Shown here piece after piece: positions 44,385-61,790 of a DNA stretch of 64,000 nucleotides. The notes under the pieces were generated by a model. The model did not search any database and was not told the DNA's origin. It saw nothing but the letters and a program-made list of their open reading frames with translations. The stretch's first letter is position 1. The number at the start of each line of letters is the position of its first letter. Made by a program: the position numbers and the translations under genes. Source of the stretch: Nanobdellota archaeon (GTDB taxonomy: Archaea > Nanobdellota > Nanobdellia > UBA10117 > ARS21); assembly GCA_014240455.1 (NCBI GenBank), contig JAAZWY010000001.1:87924-151923 (forward strand), read 5' to 3'.

Positions 44385-45656
44385 ATGTCAGCATTGAAAA
44401 GAGAACTTGGTTTATTTGAAACAACGCTGATGGGTGTTGGGATTATTCTCGGTGCTGGAATTTATGTTTTAATTGGTGCTGCTGCAGGTATTGCAGGAAA
44501 CTCAGTGTGGATGAGTTTCACCATTGCATCCATTGTTGCAATTTTTACTGGATTGAGTTATGCTGAATTCAGTTCTAGATTTTCTGATGACTCGGGAGAA
44601 TATGATTATGTCAAGAGAACGGTTTCAGAAAAATGGGGATTTATAGTCGGATGGATGATGGTCTTTACTTTGTTAATTTCTGCTGCTGCAGTGGCGTTAG
44701 GTTTTGCAGGATATTTTGCCAGATTATTTGCATCTTTAAATTTTGGAATTGTAGCAATTGCCGTAGCAACAATTATTCTTTTTTCATTCATTAGTTATTG
44801 GGGAATTAAGCAGGCAGCGTGGTTGAATATTTTGTTTACGTTCCTTGAGACCTTTGGACTATTATTCATAATTTATATTGGGCTTGGAAAAATTGGATCA
44901 GTAAATTATATGAGTATGCCTACTGGATTTGAAGGAGTTATTTCTGCAGCGGCCTTGGTATTTTTTGCATTTATTGGATTTGAAACAATTGTAAAGTTGG
45001 CGGAGGAAACAAGAAATCCAAAGAAAACTGTTCCTCGAGCAATACTACTTTCAATTTTAATATCTACAGTTATTTACATATTGGTTGCAATTTCTGCAGT
45101 TAGTATATTAAGCTGGGATAAACTTGCTGTTTCAACTGCACCGCTTGCTGATGTTGCCGCAGTTGCGTTGGGAGCTTATGCGTTCTTAGCTTTGTCAATT
45201 ATTGCATTATTTTCAACCGGAAATACTATCCTTATAATTTTGATTGGTGCGTCTCGACAAATATATGGAATCAGTAAGAACTACAAGAAATTAAACAAAC
45301 TATCTAAAGTTTCGACACGGAGAAAGACTCCCCATATTGCAGTAATATTTACTGCAGTAGTTGCGATTTGTTTTAGTTTGATTGGAAATATCGGAACGGT
45401 TGCGGAGATTACAAACTTTGCTGTTTTTGCAACATTTATTTTGATCAACGGAGCATTAATTTTTATGAGACTGAAAGAACGAAAACCCTACACTAAAGGT
45501 TTCAGAGTTCCATTATCAATTAGAAAAATTCCAGTTCCCGCAGTTTTAGGGTTGGTATCTTCACTGTTCTTACTTTTACAATTACCGATGTTTGTAATTT
45601 TGAGCGGTTTTGGATTGCTTGCAAGCGGTGCAGTTGTTCATAAAATAGTTTCTTAA
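44385..45656 (+). CDS. APC-family amino acid permease
   Basis: 12 TM, N-terminal GAGIYVL motif. Confidence 0.8.
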   Translation: MSALKRELGLFETTLMGVGIILGAGIYVLIGAAAGIAGNSVWMSFTIASIVAIFTGLSYAEFSSRFSDDSGEYDYVKRTVSEKWGFIVGWMMVFTLLISAAAVALGFAGYFARLFASLNFGIVAIAVATIILFSFISYWGIKQAAWLNILFTFLETFGLLFIIYIGLGKIGSVNYMSMPTGFEGVISAAALVFFAFIGFETIVKLAEETRNPKKTVPRAILLSILISTVIYILVAISAVSILSWDKLAVSTAPLADVAAVALGAYAFLALSIIALFSTGNTILIILIGASRQIYGISKNYKKLNKLSKVSTRRKTPHIAVIFTAVVAICFSLIGNIGTVAEITNFAVFATFILINGALIFMRLKERKPYTKGFRVPLSIRKIPVPAVLGLVSSLFLLLQLPMFVILSGFGLLASGAVVHKIVS

Positions 45657-52551: not shown

Positions 52552-53136
52552 ATGGCTGAACCGCATGCAAAGTTCGAAATTATAATCGATAAGCTGGTTC
52601 CTTATTCAATAGGATTTATTTTAGTTCATTTTATCGGAGCATTTCTGTTTCCAGACTTTTTTCATACTTATGAAGACATAGTTATATTTTTGGAAGTATT
52701 TTTGGTAACCTTTGTTTTGGGATTTGATGTTTGGTTTAAATATCGTAGAGCAAGAAACAAACAATATTTTCTTAGACATCACTGGTTAGATATAATTGCA
52801 GTATTTCCATTTATGATTTTATTTAGAATCTTTGAAGAAGCATATTTGATTACTCGATTGGCACCAGTAGAAATTGGAATTACAGATACTCAGAAAGTTT
52901 TACATGAAATTCGTGGAGCTGATGAAGCGGTGAGATTGGTTCGAGAGGCAGAAGTAGTTGGAAGAACTTCTAGAGTTGGAATGTTTGGAAAAATGTTTAG
53001 ACCTATTGCTCGAATTCCTAGAGTCTTGAAAGGTATGGCGTTCTTTGAGCATCCATTAACTCGGAAGAATAGAGGACATCATAGTATTCACTACACATTT
53101 TACAGTAAGCATGCTAGATCTGCTTTGAAAACTTAA
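52552..53136 (+). CDS. Hypothetical membrane protein (ion-channel-fragment-like HHWLDIIAVFPF)
   Basis: 3 TM N-terminal, soluble C-terminus. Confidence 0.4.
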   Translation: MAEPHAKFEIIIDKLVPYSIGFILVHFIGAFLFPDFFHTYEDIVIFLEVFLVTFVLGFDVWFKYRRARNKQYFLRHHWLDIIAVFPFMILFRIFEEAYLITRLAPVEIGITDTQKVLHEIRGADEAVRLVREAEVVGRTSRVGMFGKMFRPIARIPRVLKGMAFFEHPLTRKNRGHHSIHYTFYSKHARSALKT

Positions 53137-55505
53137 TTACTTATTTTTAGTTTTCCGCCACGTTTTAGAAGTATTTCATTTACTCGCGTTGTTCTGCAGA
53201 TGACATCCGAAGCCTGTTTTATTTTTAATGTTTGAGGATGTTCGATTTTAATTTGTTCCACAACGTCCCCAAGCCTGATTTTATTGGATTGTTTCCATTG
53301 TCTAATTTCTGAAATCATATTTTTTGCAAAGTCTCCAAGTGCTTCTGATTTTGCGTCTTTGATTCCGAGAGACTCATATTCAGTTAAGTGAATGCTATTT
53401 GTTTTCTTTTCTTTCTTGTAAAGATTTTGATAAAGCTCTTCAGTTAGATGTACAAAAATTGGTGCGAACATTTGAAGAATTCCATATAATGCTCTGTGTG
53501 TTGTCCATTGAGCAGCGTATTTTGTTTGTTTATCATCTCCATACATTCTACTTTTTATCATTTCCAAATAGAAATCACAGAAATCTCTTAGGAAGAAATC
53601 TTCAAGCTCTTGTCGTGCTTGTTTAATTTGATAGTTGTTGAAATATTCTAAATATTTTTCTTGAGTTCTTGCAAGTTTTGCTAAAATCCATTTGTCTTCA
53701 AGTTCAAGATTTTTTGGTTTTCTTGTTGGAGTTTTGTCAAAATTCATGAATGTAAATCTTGCAGTGTTCCAAAGTTTGTTCATTAGTTTTGTTCCGCGAA
53801 CTAATTCTTTTTCTTGATAAGGAGAATTTTCTCCATAGAGTGTTGTAGTAATGTAATATCTGAAAGCATCTGCGTTATATTTCTCAACTTGTGCTAACGG
53901 ATCAATTCCGTTTCCTTTTGATTTAGACATTTTTCTTCCATGTGGATCAAGAACCATACCGTTGATTACTATATCTTTCCACGGGACATTGTCGTGATGA
54001 GTCAAGGATTTCAATAAAGTGTAGAAGGTCCAAGTTCTGATAATGTCATAACCTTGTGGTCGCAAACTCATTGGTGTGTTTTTGTTGAAGGTTTTTTCAT
54101 TCTCTGCCCAACCCATAGTTATTTCAGGAGTTAGTGAAGAAGTCATCCACGTGTCAAAAACATCTTTTTCTCCGACTAATTTTTTACCTTTGTATTTTTT
54201 TGGTTTATCGCGAGTTGGATCTACTGGAAGTTCATTTTCTTCAGGTAGAATTATATTTCCTTGTTCATCATACCAAACCGGAATAGGAATTCCGATGTGT
54301 CTTTGTCTTGAAAGCACCCAATCCCATTGAAGATTTTCTGTCCAATTTCTTAGATTATTGTAGTAATGTTTTGGAGTCCAATTAACTTCTCTTGCTTTTT
54401 TCAGAAGTTTAGCTTTTAGATCTGTAACTTTGAATTGCCATTGTTCAAGGATTAAATATTCAGGTTTGTCACCATAGCGATCAGTAACTTGAACTGTTTG
54501 CTTTATTTTATCTCGCCGTTTTAGTAAACCAGATTTATCAAGTTGGCTTAGAATTGTATTTCGTGCCTCTGCAAGTGTTAGTCCTGCATATTTTCCTGCT
54601 TCTTCATTCAAACGTCCGTCTCTTCCGATGATAACTTTTAGTGGTAATTTGTATTTTTTCCACCATTCGACATCTGTTTTGTCTCCAAAAGTACAAACCA
54701 TTAATGCACCTGTTCCGAAATCAATTTTTACATCTTTGTCAGCCAGAATTGGAACTTGTTCTCCAGTTAATGGAACTGTTGCATGTTTTCCAACGAATTT
54801 TCCATATCGCGGATGTTTTGGATGAACAAAAACTGCAACACATGCTGGAATTAATTCTGGACGAGTTGTTGCGATCTGTAAGTTTGAATTCCCGACTTTA
54901 AAATTTATATAATTCAAGAAAGTTGTTTGTTCTTCCTCTTCTAAGTCTGCTTGGGAAATTCCAGTTCTTCCTGCAATTGAATACAATCCAGGTTCACTTG
55001 AACGGTAAACTCTTCCCTTTCTATGTAAATCTAAGAAAGATTTTTGCGCAACTCGTGCTGCCTTTGGTGAAATTGTTGAGTAGAATAAATCCCAATCGTA
55101 AGAGTGTCCAAATCTATCAAAAGTCTCTCTTGCAGATTTTTCAAGTTCTTTAGTTTCCTTTAATGCGATTTTTATGAATTTCTGCCGAGACATTTTTGTT
55201 GATTTTATTCCTAGTTTCTTTTCAACATATCTTTCAGTAGGTAGACCATTGTCATCAAAACCAATTGGAAAAAAAACATTATGTCCAGTCATTCTTTTGA
55301 AACGTGCAATTGTTTCAAACATTGTATAAGATGCTCCGTGTCCCATATGTAATCTTCCAGAAATGTAGGGTGGAGGAGTATCGATTGAGAAAACGGGTTT
55401 TCTAGAGTTTGGATTAAATTTGTAAATCTTTTTTGTTCTCCAAAACCGTTGCCATTTTGATTCAATTTTCTTATAATCTGGACGTTTGTCTAATGTTTTG
55501 GACAT
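53133..55505 (-). CDS. valS: Class I aminoacyl-tRNA synthetase, best match valine--tRNA ligase
   Basis: TPPPYISGRLHMGH (HIGH), IATTRPELIPACVAVFVHPKHPRYGKFVGK, FGTGALMV, KMSKSKGNGIDP, DKWILAKL...FCDFYLE; 790 aa. Confidence 0.7.
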   Translation of the reverse strand: MSKTLDKRPDYKKIESKWQRFWRTKKIYKFNPNSRKPVFSIDTPPPYISGRLHMGHGASYTMFETIARFKRMTGHNVFFPIGFDDNGLPTERYVEKKLGIKSTKMSRQKFIKIALKETKELEKSARETFDRFGHSYDWDLFYSTISPKAARVAQKSFLDLHRKGRVYRSSEPGLYSIAGRTGISQADLEEEEQTTFLNYINFKVGNSNLQIATTRPELIPACVAVFVHPKHPRYGKFVGKHATVPLTGEQVPILADKDVKIDFGTGALMVCTFGDKTDVEWWKKYKLPLKVIIGRDGRLNEEAGKYAGLTLAEARNTILSQLDKSGLLKRRDKIKQTVQVTDRYGDKPEYLILEQWQFKVTDLKAKLLKKAREVNWTPKHYYNNLRNWTENLQWDWVLSRQRHIGIPIPVWYDEQGNIILPEENELPVDPTRDKPKKYKGKKLVGEKDVFDTWMTSSLTPEITMGWAENEKTFNKNTPMSLRPQGYDIIRTWTFYTLLKSLTHHDNVPWKDIVINGMVLDPHGRKMSKSKGNGIDPLAQVEKYNADAFRYYITTTLYGENSPYQEKELVRGTKLMNKLWNTARFTFMNFDKTPTRKPKNLELEDKWILAKLARTQEKYLEYFNNYQIKQARQELEDFFLRDFCDFYLEMIKSRMYGDDKQTKYAAQWTTHRALYGILQMFAPIFVHLTEELYQNLYKKEKKTNSIHLTEYESLGIKDAKSEALGDFAKNMISEIRQWKQSNKIRLGDVVEQIKIEHPQTLKIKQASDVICRTTRVNEILLKRGGKLKISN

Positions 55506-55536: not shown

Positions 55537-57444
55537 TTACTTATATTTCCAACCAGCAATGTGGATTGTATCCCATAGAATTCCTTTCGATCTCCAAACT
55601 TTTACTTTGAACCCTGCTTGTTCGAAAGTTTGACTTATTTTATCATCTTCACTCATCCATTCCGGAGCCCTGAATATTTTAAACACTCGATCATAATCTA
55701 TGAAATAAACTCTCCCTCGTTGTGCCATTCTCAGATTTAATGCATGAAGTACTTTTTCAGGTTCCGATAAATAACCAAGTAAACCTACTGAAGTTGCGCC
55801 ATGTAAAGTATGAACATTTTTGTGAAGTTCGTGTCTTGATCCAGAACTTTCAAGAATAAATTCAACATTTTGCAGTCCATGTTTCTGAGCAAGCTTTGTT
55901 GCATTGTGTAAATTGTTTGTTGAAACGTCAGTTGCAATAACTTGACCTTCTGCTCCAACTAGCTGAGCTAAATCTTTTGCTAGTTCTCCTGAACTGGCAC
56001 CCATGTTTAGGATTCTTCGTCGTTCAAATCCTTCAAAGTGTTTTAGAATATAGTTGTGAGTTTTTGGTTTTACAAATAATTTGTATGAAAACTTTTGTAA
56101 TGATGATGAAGTGTCCAATAATTTTTGAACGATTAATGGTTTACTTTCAACAGTACGCATTAAATAAAGAGGTACTCCGAGTGCTACAAACATTGCTCCA
56201 GTTGCAGTAGTAATCGGTTCGATTCCACCAAGTAAGAACATTAGAACTAACCCAAGCGTGACTGGCATAACTTTTCCAAATGGAACTTTGAAGGTTCTTT
56301 CAGTATCGGGTTGAGTAAATCTGAGTATAGTTACACTTACTACGACCATTGAGTACATGAAAATTGCGAGCGGTAGTACTAATTCCAATAGAAGTGCATA
56401 TGACCCAGAGATTATTATCAATCCTGATAGCACTGCCTGAACGAGGATTGCTATGTAAGGTGTTTGATATTTTGGGTGAATTTTTTGAAGTGCTTTTGGA
56501 AGAAGTCCATCTCTTGCTAAAGCGAAAATTAATCTTGGAGTTGTAATAATCCATGCTGCAGCCCCACCGAAGATATTTAGGAAGATTAGAAGAGTCATTA
56601 TTTTTCCTCCGGTTGTTCCCATGATTGCGTTTGCTACTTCAGTAAGCGGAGCGTTCGATCCTGCTAGAATTTCCCAGTTGACTGCACCTAACGAAATAGA
56701 TACAACTCCAATGGCCAATAGTGTTACGCATAAGGTTCCCCACATCATAACTTTCGGAATTACATTTTTTGCATCCTTTGTTTCTTCTGCAAGGTTTGCT
56801 ACAGTTTCCCATCCGAAGAAGGTTTCCAGAATATATACCATTGCGATTACTAGCGAAATTATTAATCCCTTTTCTCCAATGTGTGGCATCATATTTATGA
56901 TTTGAATATTTCCGAAGTCAAAATAATATACTCCCCAACTAATCAAAGTCCAAAGAGACAGGATGGTAACAATGGAAAAGATTAGCAGAACCTTTACAGA
57001 TAAATCTACTCCGCGGAATGAAACCACATTTATTAATGTTACAATTCCGAGAGCAACTACTATTTTGAAAAGTTGAGACATATCAAAGAAAATGGTTAGG
57101 TATTCTAAACAACCAATTGACAGCATTGCAATTGTTACGTTTGCAACCATCCATGAAGTCCAACCCACTAAGAATCCGCCAAATTCTCCAAAAGCTTGTT
57201 TAGTATATTCATATACTCCTCCGGATTTTGGGAACATTCCAACTAGTTCTGCGAAACATGCTGCTACAAGCATTGCAAGAATTGCTACTCCTACCCAAGC
57301 GATTAAGGATGCTGGACCGGCGATTGCTGCTGCGATTCCCGGAACGAAGAATATTCCTGTTCCAATAATTGCGTTTATTGCCAATAGAATCAATACGCTG
57401 AACGAAATGCTTTTCTTTAGCTCAGGAGTATTTGATTCTGCCAC
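55537..57444 (-). CDS. Fusion: APC-family amino acid permease (N-terminal about 440 aa) + class I SAM-dependent methyltransferase domain (C-terminal about 190 aa)
   Basis: 12 TM then ILNMGASSGELAKDL...VIATDVS...NVEFILESSG (motifs I/II/post-I) in cytoplasmic C-terminus. Confidence 0.65.
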   Translation of the reverse strand: MAESNTPELKKSISFSVLILLAINAIIGTGIFFVPGIAAAIAGPASLIAWVGVAILAMLVAACFAELVGMFPKSGGVYEYTKQAFGEFGGFLVGWTSWMVANVTIAMLSIGCLEYLTIFFDMSQLFKIVVALGIVTLINVVSFRGVDLSVKVLLIFSIVTILSLWTLISWGVYYFDFGNIQIINMMPHIGEKGLIISLVIAMVYILETFFGWETVANLAEETKDAKNVIPKVMMWGTLCVTLLAIGVVSISLGAVNWEILAGSNAPLTEVANAIMGTTGGKIMTLLIFLNIFGGAAAWIITTPRLIFALARDGLLPKALQKIHPKYQTPYIAILVQAVLSGLIIISGSYALLLELVLPLAIFMYSMVVVSVTILRFTQPDTERTFKVPFGKVMPVTLGLVLMFLLGGIEPITTATGAMFVALGVPLYLMRTVESKPLIVQKLLDTSSSLQKFSYKLFVKPKTHNYILKHFEGFERRRILNMGASSGELAKDLAQLVGAEGQVIATDVSTNNLHNATKLAQKHGLQNVEFILESSGSRHELHKNVHTLHGATSVGLLGYLSEPEKVLHALNLRMAQRGRVYFIDYDRVFKIFRAPEWMSEDDKISQTFEQAGFKVKVWRSKGILWDTIHIAGWKYK

Positions 57445-57524
57445 ATTAGTTTTATGTTATTATAGATTAAAATTGTTGGCTACTACTCTTCAGTGACTTG
57501 ACTCGGAACTATTAAAAATTTGTA

Positions 57525-57845
57525 GTGTCTGAAAACTTTATGGATGATCTTATTGCGCGCGGATCAAAACTTTATGATTCCGAAGAATTGGCTTTAGATC
57601 CAATAATTGGTACTGAAGATGATGAAGAAACTCCAGCAGGATTAACTTTTCCAAAAGATAAATTCCGAATGGATGGTGAAGGAAATGTAATAATTTTAGG
57701 GGATTTGTATAATACCTTTCTACAGGCAGCAAGTGGTGCTGAGATGCCGGTTCAGGTTGGACCCGAAACAGAGACAGAGATTGTTGAAGAATCGGTGTTT
57801 GATAAGATCCGAAACAATCTTAGGAAATTTAAGAAATTGGAATAA
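57525..57845 (+). CDS. Hypothetical acidic protein
   Basis: ORF only. Confidence 0.4.
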   Translation: MSENFMDDLIARGSKLYDSEELALDPIIGTEDDEETPAGLTFPKDKFRMDGEGNVIILGDLYNTFLQAASGAEMPVQVGPETETEIVEESVFDKIRNNLRKFKKLE

Positions 57846-57933: not shown

Positions 57934-59499
57934 ATGGATACATATAATAAACACGAAGAGGCAATGTTGGCAGATATGCATGCGACATTCCCAGAATATC
58001 TTGAAAATTCTAATACTGAAATTACAAACGAAATTGAAACAGTACAATCAAATTCACGATTTGGAACTGTTGGAAAATACGTTTTAGGCGGACTATCATT
58101 ACTTGGTCTTGCTGTGGCAGGCGCTGCAAAAGATATGGCACCATCTTTAGATGATGCAATTGTATATCACACAGACCATGCAGATAATACTCAATTAGTT
58201 CCATACGCTGGAGTAACTCAAGAAGATCCAGTTACAGATGGACAAAACATTGTTTTGAATGAAAACGGTAGAATTGTTACTGTAGATACAGAAGATAATT
58301 CAATTACACGAAGTCAAAACGCAATCTCAGGACTAGATAATCTTCAAATTAATAACGGAACAATTTCTTTCCAAACAGCTGACAAGATTTTCGCATATGA
58401 TCGCGAAGGTTTCTTGAATATTGTTGAAGACGGATATGTAGGTTCTCATCACTCAGATGGTGAACACATTCTTAGAGAAGGAAGCAACGGAGGAGTTGTT
58501 AGAGAAGATATTTCCTCAGGCGCAGAACAAGTTCTTTATGAAAATGGTTCAGTTTCAAACCTTCGAGTAGATGGCAACTTAAACCTATTTTCAGTTAATG
58601 AAGTTGTTGATAATAACACTCTTGAAAGATTAATGCTTGTAGATTCAAACGACGCAGCTAATGCAACTGAACTCCACAATGGACCAGTTAAATTCGCAGA
58701 ACTGTCTGGAGACAAGATTTATGTTGGAATTGAAAATCCAAATGATAATGCAACCGTTAACATCTTTACGTATGATGTAAATGGAAATCTAGTGGGTTCA
58801 GTAATTAACAACGTTTCTCCAAACACATTTGACATTGACCAAGGAACAATGGTTGCTGTTGAAGGAAATCAAACTATTTATGCAACAAATATTGCAACTG
58901 GAGACACACAAGTTATTGCAGATTCAAATGCAACTAAAACTAATATTGATATTGAAGGAAACGTTGTTACTTGGGTAGAAAATGGAACTCAAGTTGCTTA
59001 TGTTACAATTCCAGAGGAAACAGTTGGAAATGAAACTAATGAAACAACTTTAGAAGATTTGATGGCTGAATTAAACGCAACTCGAGATCAATTGAGTTCA
59101 GTTAATGATCAATTAAACGCTTCTGAAGCTAATGATACAGCTTACCAAGCTGAAGTTAACCAACTAACTGGTGAAATTTCAGACTTGCAAACTGAAATCA
59201 ACGGATTAGACAGTAATGCTTCTGACTATCAAACTGAAATTAACCGATTAAACGGAGATATTTCAAACTTAACTGAAAATGTTTCAGACTATTCTGCTCA
59301 ACTAACTGCAGCACAGACTCAAAGAGATGAAAATGCTACACGTGTTGGCGAATTAGAAGAAGCTTTGGATTCTGCTGAAGGAACTAGTACAATGTCTGCT
59401 TTTGTTGGAATTGCACTTGGCGGAGCAGCTGGAGGAATGATCGGTACACGATTAGCTAGTAAACCTGAAGTTGATTACGGTTCTTCTGAAGAAGAGTAA
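57934..59499 (+). CDS. Bitopic surface protein: N-terminal cytoplasmic segment, TM, ectodomain dense in N-x-S/T sequons, coiled-coil heptads, C-terminal Gly-rich TM
   Basis: More than 15 NxT/NxS sequons (NATE, NDNATV, NNVS, GNQT, NATK, NGTQ, GNETNETT, NATR, NASE, NDT, NAS, NLTENVS, NATR); coiled-coil region 59050-59400. Confidence 0.55.
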   Translation: MDTYNKHEEAMLADMHATFPEYLENSNTEITNEIETVQSNSRFGTVGKYVLGGLSLLGLAVAGAAKDMAPSLDDAIVYHTDHADNTQLVPYAGVTQEDPVTDGQNIVLNENGRIVTVDTEDNSITRSQNAISGLDNLQINNGTISFQTADKIFAYDREGFLNIVEDGYVGSHHSDGEHILREGSNGGVVREDISSGAEQVLYENGSVSNLRVDGNLNLFSVNEVVDNNTLERLMLVDSNDAANATELHNGPVKFAELSGDKIYVGIENPNDNATVNIFTYDVNGNLVGSVINNVSPNTFDIDQGTMVAVEGNQTIYATNIATGDTQVIADSNATKTNIDIEGNVVTWVENGTQVAYVTIPEETVGNETNETTLEDLMAELNATRDQLSSVNDQLNASEANDTAYQAEVNQLTGEISDLQTEINGLDSNASDYQTEINRLNGDISNLTENVSDYSAQLTAAQTQRDENATRVGELEEALDSAEGTSTMSAFVGIALGGAAGGMIGTRLASKPEVDYGSSEEE

Positions 59500-59520: not shown

Positions 59521-60510
59521 ATGAAATATACTCTACCTAATTTGATTAAAGTAATTGATTCAAAAAATCAAAACTGGACTGAGGAACGTATTTCATGGTT
59601 TATTGATTCAATTAAAGAAGACGGTACTAATTATAACGCATTAACTAGGGCTGATAGAAAAGTGATTTCAGGATTTTCAGATTCTAAATTAGAAGCATAT
59701 GTTGGTTCATTATTAGGAGAACCGATTTTGAATAATGCAAAGAGCTCTTCTGAACAAATTAGAGCTGAAGCTGAACGAACTAGAAGTGAAGCAGATAATT
59801 ATTTACTGGAAGTTACTCAAAACGCACAGACTTCTGCACAACAAATTAAAGTGAGTGCAGAGACGTCCATGGAACAACTATTGGACAATGCAAAGTCTGA
59901 AGCTGAACGAACTAGAAGTGAAGCAGATATTTATTCACAACAAATCCGAGATGATGCAAGTACTGAAAGTAAAGAATATTTAGCTAACTTGAAAGCTGCT
60001 GAAGTAGTTGAGTTGTATGAAGGAAATTTACCTGCTGAATCAACTCTAATGAGAATGCCAAAAAAGGTACTTTCAGATTATGCTCAGTTAATTAGATGCG
60101 ATATCAATAATGAAATGACTAAGCGAGAGATTGTAGATACAATTAGTAATAATTATGACGGTCTTGGAAAAACAGTAATCGTTGTTCCGGATAAATCAGG
60201 TCAACTTGAGCAAATTAATCAAGAAAAAATGTCACTTGAACTTCTTGAAAATGCTTCTGATTTAAGAATTAGCAAGCTAGATGATCGAGAAAGTGACTTG
60301 CAAGATTGGGAAAACCGAATCACAGATCGTGAGCAAAGTCTTGAAGCTACACTCAACGGCGAAGAATACAAAGAGAAACAAGCTAAACGTTTAAAATTAG
60401 CTCAAAAGATGAGTTATGTTATGGCAGGAGTGGCTCTTGCGGCAGGTGCAGTATATGGTGAATATACTGGAATAACTGATTTTGTTGATTTTACTAATTT
60501 ACGAGGATAA
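59521..60510 (+). CDS. Coiled-coil protein with internal SEAERTRSEAD repeat and C-terminal TM
   Basis: 32-nt exact DNA repeat tgaagctgaacgaactagaagtgaagcagata at about 59776 and about 59903; C-terminal hydrophobic MSYVMAGVALAAGAVYG. Confidence 0.5.
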   Translation: MKYTLPNLIKVIDSKNQNWTEERISWFIDSIKEDGTNYNALTRADRKVISGFSDSKLEAYVGSLLGEPILNNAKSSSEQIRAEAERTRSEADNYLLEVTQNAQTSAQQIKVSAETSMEQLLDNAKSEAERTRSEADIYSQQIRDDASTESKEYLANLKAAEVVELYEGNLPAESTLMRMPKKVLSDYAQLIRCDINNEMTKREIVDTISNNYDGLGKTVIVVPDKSGQLEQINQEKMSLELLENASDLRISKLDDRESDLQDWENRITDREQSLEATLNGEEYKEKQAKRLKLAQKMSYVMAGVALAAGAVYGEYTGITDFVDFTNLRG

Positions 60511-60612: not shown

Positions 60613-60687
60613 GGTCCGGTAGCGTAGCCTGGTTAGCGCGCACGACTGATAATCGTGAGGTCGCAAGTTCAAATCTTGCCCGGACCA
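60613..60687 (+). tRNA. tRNA-Ile (anticodon GAU), no encoded CCA
   Basis: Hand-folded cloverleaf: acceptor GGTCCGG/CCGGACC, D-stem GCGT/GCGC, anticodon stem CACGA/TCGTG loop CTGATAA, T-arm GCAAG-TTCAAAT-CTTGC, discriminator A. Confidence 0.85.
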
Positions 60688-60737
60688 CTCACTTCTAAAA
60701 TGAAAGAACTCTTAAATTGGAATGCTTATGAACTAGT

Positions 60738-61790
60738 ATGATTGAATATTTGAGTCAGTTTGATCCAAGATCAGTTTCAATAGGTATAGTTATTTTTTCA
60801 ATTATTCTTGCGATTCTTATGCGAAGAGTTTTGAAAGTTGTTGGTAACTTTGCAGCAAATACCAAAACACAAGTTGATGAAATTATACTTGGAAATATTC
60901 GTGCACCAATTCAAGTTTTAATTGTTACTTTCGGTTTCTTTTTCGCAGTTAAATATTCTCAACCTGCGTTTACTGTTGGAACAATTACCGTTCTTCAGAT
61001 ATTTTCAATTCTATGGATTATTGCAATAACCTTTCTTGTTTCAAGAATTATTAAGTCACTTTTTGAAGTTTATACTTATGAACTCAAGTCCAAGTTACGT
61101 CGAAAAGTTGATGATACACTATTTAATTTTTCTCGGAAGTTGATCAATTTCTCAGTTTATATTATTGCTTTATCTATTATTTTGAAGCAATTTGGAATTG
61201 AAATTACGCCTTTGTTAGCAGGATTGGGAATTGCAGGAATTGCAGTTGCAATGGCTTTGAAAGATACTCTTTCAAATTTCTTATCTGCCATTTATATTAC
61301 TGCAGATAGACCGATGAAGCTTGGAGATTATGTTGAACTGGATGCTAACACTGCAGGATATGTTGTAGATATTGGGTGGCGTTCTACAAGATTGAGAACT
61401 TGGGATCACAATTATTTAATCTTACCAAATTCTAAGATTGCAGAATCTGTTTTTAGAAATTATAATGCACCTAAAACTGAAATGACTACTTTAGTTTCTT
61501 GTGGAGTTTCATATAATTCTGATTTGAAGAAGGTCGAGAGAGTTGCATTAGCGGTAGCAAAAAAGGTTCAAAAGTCAGTAGATGGAACTATTAAAGAATA
61601 CGAACCAAGTTTGAGATTTAGAGAATTTGGAGATAGTGCAATAACGTTTACTGTAAGTTTGAGAGTTAAAAACCGGGAAAGTCGTAGCAGAGTTGTACAT
61701 GAATTCATTAAGGCTTTGAAAGTAAGATTTGATAAAGAAAAGATTGAGATTCCATTTCCTCAAATGGATATTCATATGAAGAAGGGATAG
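60738..61790 (+). CDS. mscS: Small-conductance mechanosensitive channel (MscS family)
   Basis: TM3 motif GLGIAGIAVAMALKDTLSNF and beta-domain. Confidence 0.8.
   Translation: MIEYLSQFDPRSVSIGIVIFSIILAILMRRVLKVVGNFAANTKTQVDEIILGNIRAPIQVLIVTFGFFFAVKYSQPAFTVGTITVLQIFSILWIIAITFLVSRIIKSLFEVYTYELKSKLRRKVDDTLFNFSRKLINFSVYIIALSIILKQFGIEITPLLAGLGIAGIAVAMALKDTLSNFLSAIYITADRPMKLGDYVELDANTAGYVVDIGWRSTRLRTWDHNYLILPNSKIAESVFRNYNAPKTEMTTLVSCGVSYNSDLKKVERVALAVAKKVQKSVDGTIKEYEPSLRFREFGDSAITFTVSLRVKNRESRSRVVHEFIKALKVRFDKEKIEIPFPQMDIHMKKG

Follow-up and report, generated by a model that had tools for sequence, protein, structure and literature searches.

The window analysed here, a 64,000-nucleotide stretch of contig JAAZWY010000001.1, carries a gene that joins an amino-acid permease and a class I methyltransferase fold in one polypeptide. 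The fusion recurs throughout the DPANN archaea, and its cytoplasmic domain is tentatively read as an S-adenosylmethionine (SAM)-dependent methyltransferase working on a small molecule where the transporter opens into the cytoplasm. The host is a marine Woesearchaeota-type DPANN archaeon. Coordinates below are positions in the window, and all features described lie on its minus strand.

Gene and permease half

The fusion ORF (55537-57444) is complete and encodes 635 amino acids, with a GTG start at 57444-57442 and a TAA stop at 55539-55537. A TATA-like A/T-rich element, ttttaatctataataa (57457-57472), precedes the GTG by 13 to 28 nt and may serve as an archaeal promoter, giving a leaderless or short-leader transcript.

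Residues 1-435 (56140-57444) form a 12-TM, LeuT-fold amino-acid permease of the APC/LAT type, as indicated by Pfam, alignment with BasC, Foldseek and hydropathy. This region matched Pfam AA_permease_2 with an E-value of 9e-53 (180.1 bits, threshold 27) and also AA_permease (101.6 bits, threshold 24.6). The alignment with BasC (6f2g/9h76) spans TM1-12 (E 4e-36, 27-28% identity), and the Foldseek comparison gave a TM-score of 0.85, normalised to BasC. No further hydrophobic segment is seen beyond residue 429. By homology with the BasC and LAT structures the permease C-terminus is predicted to be cytoplasmic, and on this homology the cytoplasmic location that the first-pass annotation had given to the appended domain is upheld.

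Two unwound-helix motifs stand out among 106 aligned homologues. In TM1 (G28-T29-G30, 57355-57363), G28 never varies, and T29 and G30 are each kept in 90% or more of the sequences; we take this to be the motif that contacts the substrate alpha-carboxylate in solved APC transporters. In TM6 (E207-T-F-F-G-W-E213, 56806-56826), G211 is invariant, and conservation reaches at least 90% for E207, F209, F210, W212 and E213; this is presumably the region that contacts the alpha-amino group in the same structures. The TM1 GTG and TM6 FFGWE motifs, used for alpha-amino acid binding, are therefore kept in the putative transporter half, which is under strong purifying selection (dN/dS 0.04). The NCBIfam model TIGR00909 (2A0306) was not reached (247.3 bits, cut-off 556.8), and the other named APC equivalogs, such as BcaP and the ethanolamine permease, fell even further under their cut-offs. 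Since every named APC model in NCBIfam scored below its cut-off, no specific transporter subfamily was assigned.

The architecture is that of BasC, GkApcT (5oqt) and the SLC7 LAT light chains, with which the protein shares 12 TM segments in a LeuT fold as well as TM1 G(S/T)G and TM6 FxGxE-type motifs. Whereas these transporters stop soon after TM12 and have no enzyme-like domain, the present protein continues for 200 residues of methyltransferase fold.

Methyltransferase domain

Three cytoplasmic helices (residues 436-476, 56017-56139) lead from TM12 to the Rossmann core. They were predicted by AF2 at residues 436-445, 447-457 and 460-469, with pLDDT values of 74-82, and in the model they would be the counterparts of the N-terminal cap helices in a methyltransferase domain. 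The core itself (residues 477-635, 55540-56016) is a seven-stranded beta sheet flanked by helices, which superposes on solved class I methyltransferases. The domain passed the Pfam thresholds of Methyltransf_31 (37.0 against 27), Methyltransf_25 (31.5 against 27) and Ubie_methyltran (26.8 against 20.1). It is minimal, having neither a lid nor a substrate-binding insertion, and in the predicted structure it apparently packs under the transporter in a fixed orientation (pTM 0.85). With both halves above Pfam thresholds and the seven-stranded core in place, the earlier proposal of a permease followed by a true methyltransferase fold is borne out.

Its closest structural relatives belong to the Methyltransf_11/25/31 (UbiE/COQ5-like) group, including the Aquifex aeolicus protein 3dh0, TmtA (5egp), UbiG (4kdr) and the phosphoethanolamine N-methyltransferases, at 13-22% identity. 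The present subfamily differs from that group in being nearly always fused to a permease, and the query also in having GASSG and N480 in place of (D/E)xGxGxG. Fold searches with the domain returned generic small-molecule methyltransferases only. None of the NCBIfam families UbiG, UbiE/MenG, BioC, ArsM, CbiT and PIMT was reached, the best score being 26.4 bits for UbiG against a cut-off of 102.95; four orthologous domains also stayed under the NCBIfam cut-offs, canonical orthologues scoring at most 55.6 bits against 102.95. Arsenite methylation of the ArsM kind was rejected, as the conserved cysteines are absent.

The literature search yielded no study of a permease-methyltransferase fusion; the permeases mentioned in PMC10266531 are ordinary ones. 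An automatic IMG label, 'amino acid transporter/precorrin-6B methylase 2', covers both halves, and databases otherwise name the protein only 'amino acid permease'. The initial impression that the fusion lies outside any described family thus agrees with the literature searched and with the database names.

Conservation of the fusion

The identical 635-aa protein was found on two independent assemblies. The same full-length architecture is present in more than 100 homologue clusters (34-97% identity) and, in a genome scan with full-length alignment, in at least 80 GTDB species genomes. The carriers are Woesearchaeota, Nanoarchaeota, Pacearchaeota, Aenigmatarchaeota and Undinarchaeales, and the uninterrupted fusions stem from many studies and assemblers. 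Within the query clade the C-terminal domain has a dN/dS of 0.05-0.11, indicating purifying selection, which continues across the permease-methyltransferase junction. An assembly error or frameshift merging adjacent permease and methyltransferase genes is contradicted by the two assemblies, the breadth of genomes and clusters and the selection across the junction; nothing was found in its favour, and this explanation was rejected with a probability close to nil. The fusion is real, as first annotated, and a search of other genomes, which that annotation had called for, recovers it across many DPANN lineages. A sole apparent case of horizontal transfer to bacteria, in an 'LCP-89 bacterium' (locus L078), was rejected as mis-binned, its flanks being archaeal (ribosomal protein L10e, Dph2-like).

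The methyltransferase subfamily occurs almost exclusively fused to the permease, with the two halves separate in just 2 of about 105 representative clusters. Most seemingly stand-alone domains were dismissed as contig-edge fragments or truncated gene calls. The genes P0150 and P0156, in contrast, encode intact stand-alone domains, with neither a permease remnant upstream nor an adjacent permease, which shows that the domain can function without a covalent tie to the transporter. Such copies are more in keeping with an enzyme than with a part of purely structural use.

No conserved operon partner was found across the family, including the clustered flanks of 80 genome loci. The recurrent neighbours are translation genes, namely those for S7, S12, a NusA-like protein and a class I tRNA synthetase, and a Dph2-like gene lies near the fusion in 19 of the 80 loci; both are read as synteny inside one clade. 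The search for substrate pointers (a partner gene, a characterised methyltransferase family or a substrate signature) found none.

SAM motifs and the conserved second cluster

The family consensus of motif I is canonical, (E/D)xGCGVG, and all six scored SAM-signature positions are canonical in 56 of the 106 aligned homologues. The query has a variant of this consensus in its motif I region (I478-L-N-M-G-A-S-S-G-E-L488, 55981-56013): N480-M-G482-A-S484-S-G486 retains the outer two glycines of the loop, with serine in place of the central one and asparagine in place of the acidic residue. GAxxG-type loops are present in active enzymes, for instance fibrillarin and FtsJ. The query retains G482 (conserved in 101/106 homologues), G486, D506 and E532. 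At the end of beta2 (I503-A-T-D506-V-S508, 55921-55938), position 506 is D/E in 83/106 and S508 is found in 99/106; D506 is expected from the alignment to be the acidic residue for the SAM ribose hydroxyls. The motif III acidic residue, which in class I methyltransferases contacts the adenine, lies at the end of beta3 as E532 (55849-55851; D/E in 100/106). Under the catalytic reading given below, the variant motif (GASSG, N480) would still bind SAM.

A second set of conserved residues lies further along the domain. Beta4 and the following loop (L547-H548-G-A-T-S552-V-G554-L-L-G-Y558, 55771-55806), the motif IV region, are expected to line the predicted methyl-transfer site (residues 547-558); G554 is found in 102, Y558 in 98 and S552 in 89 of the 106 homologues, while position 548 is D in 80 of them and H in the query clade. 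From the end of beta5 through W596 (V579-Y-F581-I-D583-Y584-D ... W596, 55657-55710) runs an aromatic/acidic cluster, outside the SAM motifs, with F581 in 101/106, D/E583 in 102/106, Y/F584 in 105/106 and W596 in 92/106. Judged by alignment, the cluster made up of G554, Y558, F581, D/E583, Y584 and W596 occupies the putative acceptor-site region of class I enzymes.

The query clade has drifted from the canonical state at N480, GASSG and H548. Its sister clade (53-56% identical) has lost motif I altogether (GTD[VA]S) and carries His where beta2 would end in an acidic residue; the domain and the non-SAM cluster, including its beta5 aromatic/acidic part, persist. The domain can therefore be retained where canonical SAM binding motifs are gone.

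Function of the appended domain

Taken together, these features allow several readings, and the one tentatively preferred, if short of probable, is that the domain is a SAM-dependent methyltransferase whose acceptor is a small molecule, an amine or one of amino-acid type, met at the cytoplasmic opening of the transporter. The cytoplasmic domain would bind SAM and transfer its methyl group to such a molecule there, the acceptor being either the freshly imported substrate or a compound due to leave by exchange. One methylation step would thereby be coupled to uptake or exchange. That the domain is catalytic, what it methylates and how this is coupled to transport are inferred, and substrate channelling is put forward as a hypothesis, as are the osmolyte or betaine synthesis and the methylation of the transporter itself that the first-pass annotation had also proposed. 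Against catalysis, import-linked methylation of a proteinogenic amino acid brings no obvious benefit.

A regulatory role responsive to SAM is only slightly less likely, if in itself rather doubtful, and the erosion of the SAM motifs in the lineage of the query makes it a serious rival. The domain would then be a non-catalytic or weakly catalytic sensor of SAM/SAH or, in the clade with altered motifs, of another metabolite. By gating or trans-inhibiting the transporter, it would make the uptake of amino acids, or of methionine, depend on the methyl-donor status of the cell. Progressive erosion of the SAM motifs in the query lineage and their loss in the sister clade, under continuing purifying selection and with the non-SAM surface intact, speak for such a role, as do the missing lid and the apparently rigid docking in the model, which suits allosteric coupling. 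The fusion is near-universal in reduced genomes, sits amid translation genes in a housekeeping context and not in a metabolic operon, and is almost never split, which also fits an integral regulatory module. However, in most members the signature is fully canonical and of the catalytic type, and the acceptor-site-like cluster accompanies it; the intact stand-alone copies, too, have no permease beside them. To our knowledge no prokaryotic methyltransferase-fold SAM sensor on a transporter has been described, which also counts against a sensor.

That the permease merely anchors the enzyme is improbable. The enzyme would then methylate lipid head groups, quinone-like compounds or proteins, and the permease would position it or supply a lipid-linked substrate. 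The lipid, quinone and protein methyltransferase families which the domain resembles are generic archetypes of the fold, and the scores lie far under their cut-offs. DPANN archaea mostly lack quinone and lipid biosynthesis, and neither invariant substrate-binding motifs nor the strong selection on the permease would be needed for a mere anchor.

More specific and, on balance, unlikely is the proposal that the domain is a built-in SAM/SAH sensor gating the main DPANN amino-acid transporter or, equally, that it carries out vectorial methylation of an amine or amino acid leaving the transporter, in a manner resembling group translocation.

Comparison with known systems

The preferred catalytic reading has analogues among APC antiporters that are paired with an enzyme, such as AdiC/AdiA, GadC/GadB and ArcD with the arginine deiminase pathway, and in the E. 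coli S-methylmethionine permease and homocysteine S-methyltransferase, MmuP/MmuM. The likeness would lie in the teaming of an APC transporter with an enzyme for which the transported molecule is the substrate; in MmuP/MmuM that enzyme is a methyltransferase. In those systems the enzymes are separate, operon-encoded polypeptides of other folds, whereas the enzyme-like domain here is covalently fused. Within the APC superfamily, KimA and the SLC12 cation-chloride cotransporters have an APC fold followed by a folded cytoplasmic domain with a regulatory role, but that domain is not of the methyltransferase fold; SLC12 structures were weaker full-length Foldseek matches of the query.

For a regulatory role, possible analogues are the C2 domain of the methionine importer MetNI and the CBS domains of OpuA. 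SAMTOR is a methyltransferase fold that serves as a SAM sensor; it is eukaryotic and soluble, and its sequence is unrelated to that of the query.

Significance

DPANN archaea have very small genomes and import most of their building blocks, so that a few transporters are central to their life on hosts or on dissolved organics. The fusion apparently serves Woesearchaeota, Nanoarchaeota and their relatives as a major amino-acid transporter, and the label 'amino acid permease' mis-describes it in databases. With SAM motifs that are canonical in some members, drifted in others and lost in a third group, the family offers a natural series from enzyme to pseudoenzyme.

The permanent join to a SAM-type domain suggests that amino-acid uptake and methyl-group metabolism are linked in a way so far unrecognised. 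A catalytic domain would make the protein a rare transporter-enzyme fusion and define a new methylation step for a small molecule; a regulatory domain would make it the first transporter in prokaryotes whose gating depends on a sensor of the methyltransferase fold. Should either gating by SAM/SAH or vectorial methylation prove true, these amino-acid scavengers would couple their one-carbon status to nutrient uptake in a way not described before.

Identification and spread of the permease-methyltransferase fusion

The gene under study (positions 55537 to 57444, minus strand) was found to be a single ORF of 635 aa, as the first-pass annotation had claimed, and starts with GTG. Its GC content and skew are like those of its flanks, and an A/T-rich TATA-like element lies 13-28 nt 5' of the GTG. 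The product matches Pfam AA_permease_2 at residues 14-405 (E 9e-53) and several generic class I methyltransferase models at residues ~470-588, with Methyltransf_31 (37.0 bits), Methyltransf_25 (31.5 bits) and Ubie_methyltran (26.8 bits) each over the curated Pfam cut-off. The methyltransferase motifs that had been read from the sequence were located at residues 478-487 (ILNMGASSGE, end of beta1), 504-508 (ATDVS, end of beta2) and 547-558 (motif IV region), and a hydropathy scan detected no hydrophobic segment beyond residue 429. ORF, Pfam matches, motif positions and hydropathy thus all confirmed the proposed fusion.

The identical 635-aa protein is encoded by two independently assembled metagenome contigs and, according to a cluster look-up, by a 178-kb NCBI/ENA contig. 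A search of 5.8 billion proteins returned more than 100 homologue clusters (34-97% identity, 98-100% coverage, 620-660 aa), nearly all with both the permease and the methyltransferase Pfam match, and a genome scan found homologues at no fewer than 80 loci in GTDB species-representative genomes. In the 80 listed GTDB loci the alignment reaches residue 627-635, except in one that ends at a contig edge. An assembly or frameshift artefact is refuted by the identical protein in independent assemblies and by the same architecture in more than 100 clusters and at least 80 genomes; the fusion is real and conserved.

Record titles place the homologues in Woesearchaeota, Nanoarchaeota/Nanoarchaeia, Pacearchaeota, Aenigmatarchaeota and Nanobdellota/Nanobdellati, to which protein names from the protein-database search add Undinarchaeales. 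Marine samples, from TARA Oceans and elsewhere and including a mesopelagic 0.1-0.22 um fraction, are the source of the cluster members and of the nearest genome among the listed matches (93% identity). Many TPA MAGs with a DPANN-type fusion gene carry the automated title 'uncultured Methanosarcinales'. Locus L078 lies on a 307-kb contig (NJBN01000005.1) titled 'candidate division LCP-89 bacterium', at whose end the fusion is found with archaeal ribosomal protein L10e, an MscS gene and a Dph2-like gene. With such archaeal genes around the fusion, the contig is probably a chimera or was assigned to the wrong bin.

The transporter half

Among solved structures, those most closely related to the permease half are BasC, a bacterial LAT-type exchanger (E 4e-36, query residues 13-428 versus BasC 4-425), xCT, the LATs, Asc-1 and GkApcT. 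The full-length AlphaFold2 model, built from a 106-sequence alignment (pLDDT 91.2, pTM 0.85), superimposes on BasC (TM-score 0.85 with normalisation to BasC). The motifs G28-T29-G30 in TM1 and E207-T-F-F-G-W-E213 in TM6 are invariant or nearly so; in solved APC structures these unwound-helix motifs bind the alpha-carboxylate and alpha-amino groups of the substrate. The dN/dS of this half (0.04-0.07) makes it very probable that it functions as an alpha-amino-acid transporter. No NCBIfam subfamily of transporters was matched above its curated threshold (TIGR00909 scored 247 against a cut-off of 557). Alternatively, the protein could be a membrane-anchored methyltransferase acting on lipid, quinone or protein, but this is improbable, since the permease half is itself strongly constrained at its substrate-binding motifs.

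Another APC permease, of 423 aa and unfused, is encoded elsewhere in the window (44385 to 45656, plus strand; AA_permease_2 E 1.5e-46); it shares only 25% identity with the permease half of the fusion. Both a plain and a methyltransferase-tagged APC transporter are thus present in the organism.

Genomic context

In the window, the fusion gene is accompanied by archaeal housekeeping genes (aRF1, histone, aIF5A, aIF2-gamma, class I and II tRNA synthetases). Its stop codon is separated by 31 nt from the start of a downstream class I aminoacyl-tRNA synthetase gene of the Val/Leu/Ile type (53133 to 55505, minus strand), with which it may be co-transcribed; the product has only 790 aa and a Leu-type editing-domain match. 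The convergent 194-aa ORF beyond it (52552 to 53136, plus strand) overlaps the end of the synthetase gene by 4 nt. It encodes hydrophobic N-terminal helices, has no Pfam match, and is kept at the same position in two other loci, L001 and L002. On the other side, a 106-aa ORF without Pfam match (57525 to 57845) precedes two adjacent plus-strand genes for acidic, coiled-coil-rich proteins of 521 aa (57934 to 59499) and 329 aa (59521 to 60510). Both proteins give only weak coiled-coil Pfam matches, and in both a hydrophobic, Gly/Ala-rich stretch close to the C-terminus may serve as a membrane anchor. They are followed, on the plus strand, by tRNA-Ile(GAT) (60613 to 60688), overlapped by a spurious 64-aa minus-strand ORF, and by a gene for an MscS-type mechanosensitive channel (60738 to 61790). 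An MscS gene is near the fusion in L078 too.

When the flanking ORFs of the 80 listed GTDB loci were clustered, no family-wide conserved partner gene emerged. A Dph2-like diphthamide-synthesis gene (~219 aa, PF01866 E 7e-36; e.g. L078 2225-2890 and L041 1107-1781, both minus strand) is divergently adjacent, upstream of the fusion, in 19 of these loci, at 84-440 bp in all but one of the 19. Dph2 is itself a SAM-using enzyme. The adjacency is probably synteny, less probably a sign of co-regulation. Ribosomal proteins S7 (18/80) and S12 (11/80), a NusA-like KH protein (8/80) and, in the clade of the query, a class I tRNA synthetase (10/80) also recur. The fusion looks like a resident of a conserved translation-gene neighbourhood, not of a metabolic operon.

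The methyltransferase domain

The first-pass annotation had assigned the C-terminal region to a methyltransferase fold, which the Pfam and Foldseek matches bear out. In the AlphaFold2 models, TM12 is followed by three helices (residues 436-469) and a Rossmann core with strands at 477-481, 501-506, 527-531, 547-553, 573-585, 612-619 and 625-633. Modelled alone (pLDDT 90.8), the domain matches Aquifex 3dh0 (Foldseek E 2e-13, TM 0.74-0.79), and further UbiG, Rv2258c, SpnF and ChlM. It is thus modelled as a generic small-molecule class I methyltransferase fold without lid insertion. UbiG, UbiE/MenG, BioC, ArsM and CbiT gave only sub-threshold NCBIfam matches with the query domain and four orthologous domains. 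The C-termini of BasC and the LATs are cytoplasmic, and by homology so should be this domain. Since the pTM of 0.85 exceeds the share attainable by the permease only (435/635 = 0.68), the two domains are apparently packed in a fixed, confidently predicted arrangement.

A search of 1.84 billion representative proteins with the domain profile gave 105 matches at E <= 1e-30, followed by a drop to generic methyltransferases. Sixty-seven of them are 550 aa or longer and have the domain at ~430-640, 18 are truncated but retain TM segments, and most of the others are fragments. Only two genuine stand-alone genes were found, each in two assemblies. P0150 (L091 3001-3588) lies inside a 285-kb contig, in an S7/S12/NusA neighbourhood like many fusions, with unrelated soluble genes and no permease remnant upstream; P0156 (L093 539-1162) has a divergent upstream gene and no permease. 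P0130 was rejected as a fragment at a contig edge. The domain family is almost confined to permease fusions. A few homologues, P0097 (853 aa), P0143 (827 aa), P0146 (841 aa) and P0169 (858 aa), carry an extra C-terminal extension of ~200 aa, which matches DUF3108 in P0097 (E 3.5e-7) and has no Pfam match in P0143.

Conservation and putative function

Over 106 aligned homologues, the consensus at the SAM motifs is canonical: motif I (E/D)xG[CA]GVG (G482 in 101, G486 in 92), beta2 A-T-D-x-S (D/E506 in 83, S508 in 99), an acidic residue after beta3 (D/E532 in 100) and D548 at beta4 (80). All six scored positions are canonical in 56 sequences. A second conserved set lies outside this signature (S552, G554, Y558, F581, D/E583, Y584, W596, F607, G611, F612, W624, G631 and K633), and several of its residues occupy post-beta4/post-beta5 positions, at which the acceptor site of class I methyltransferases lies. 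In the three comparisons with the least saturation within the query clade (64-97% identity), the domain gave dN/dS values of 0.084, 0.051 and 0.114, roughly double those of the permease, and so is still strongly constrained. What is firmly supported is an amino-acid-type APC transporter fused to a cytoplasmic class I methyltransferase-fold domain maintained by selection.

This domain might bind SAM and act at the transporter's inner face to methylate a small amine or amino-acid-type molecule, a reading that we favour tentatively because the SAM signatures are canonical across deep divergence, an aromatic and acidic acceptor-site-like cluster is conserved, and intact stand-alone copies exist, though rare. 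The main rival, a regulatory module that responds to SAM/SAH or to some other ligand, is a real but somewhat doubtful possibility. It draws on the motifs, which are eroded in the query clade (N480, G[AST]SSG or GC[SN]IG, and H548, next to a canonical D/E506) and replaced in a sister clade (P0020-P0035, 12-14 clusters, 53-56% identity to the query; e.g. L006 6001-7938). There, motif I reads GTD[VA]S and position 506 is His, so that both the glycine loop and the acid that binds the ribose have been lost. Because the second conserved set and the rest of the domain are retained, the sister-clade domain could be a pseudoenzyme or have another ligand. A gene for a bacterial-type SAM synthetase is located ~5.5 kb upstream of the fusion in L006. 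The minimal, lidless fold, the near-obligate fusion, the housekeeping context and the apparently rigid docking in the model also speak for a regulatory module.

Both halves are members of well-known superfamilies. Full-text literature searches turned up no description of their combination; public records label the protein 'amino acid permease', and the sole label covering both halves is the automatic IMG 'amino acid transporter/precorrin-6B methylase 2'. The nearest known systems resemble it by analogy only: the APC antiporters AdiC and GadC, paired with the separate cytoplasmic enzymes AdiA and GadB; the MmuP/MmuM operon of a permease and a methyltransferase; KimA and SLC12, APC-superfamily transporters with C-terminal regulatory domains; and, for the domain, the methyltransferase-fold sensor SAMTOR. 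The fusion is a lineage-wide domain architecture made of familiar parts, and offers a clean, testable lead on nutrient uptake in DPANN archaea.
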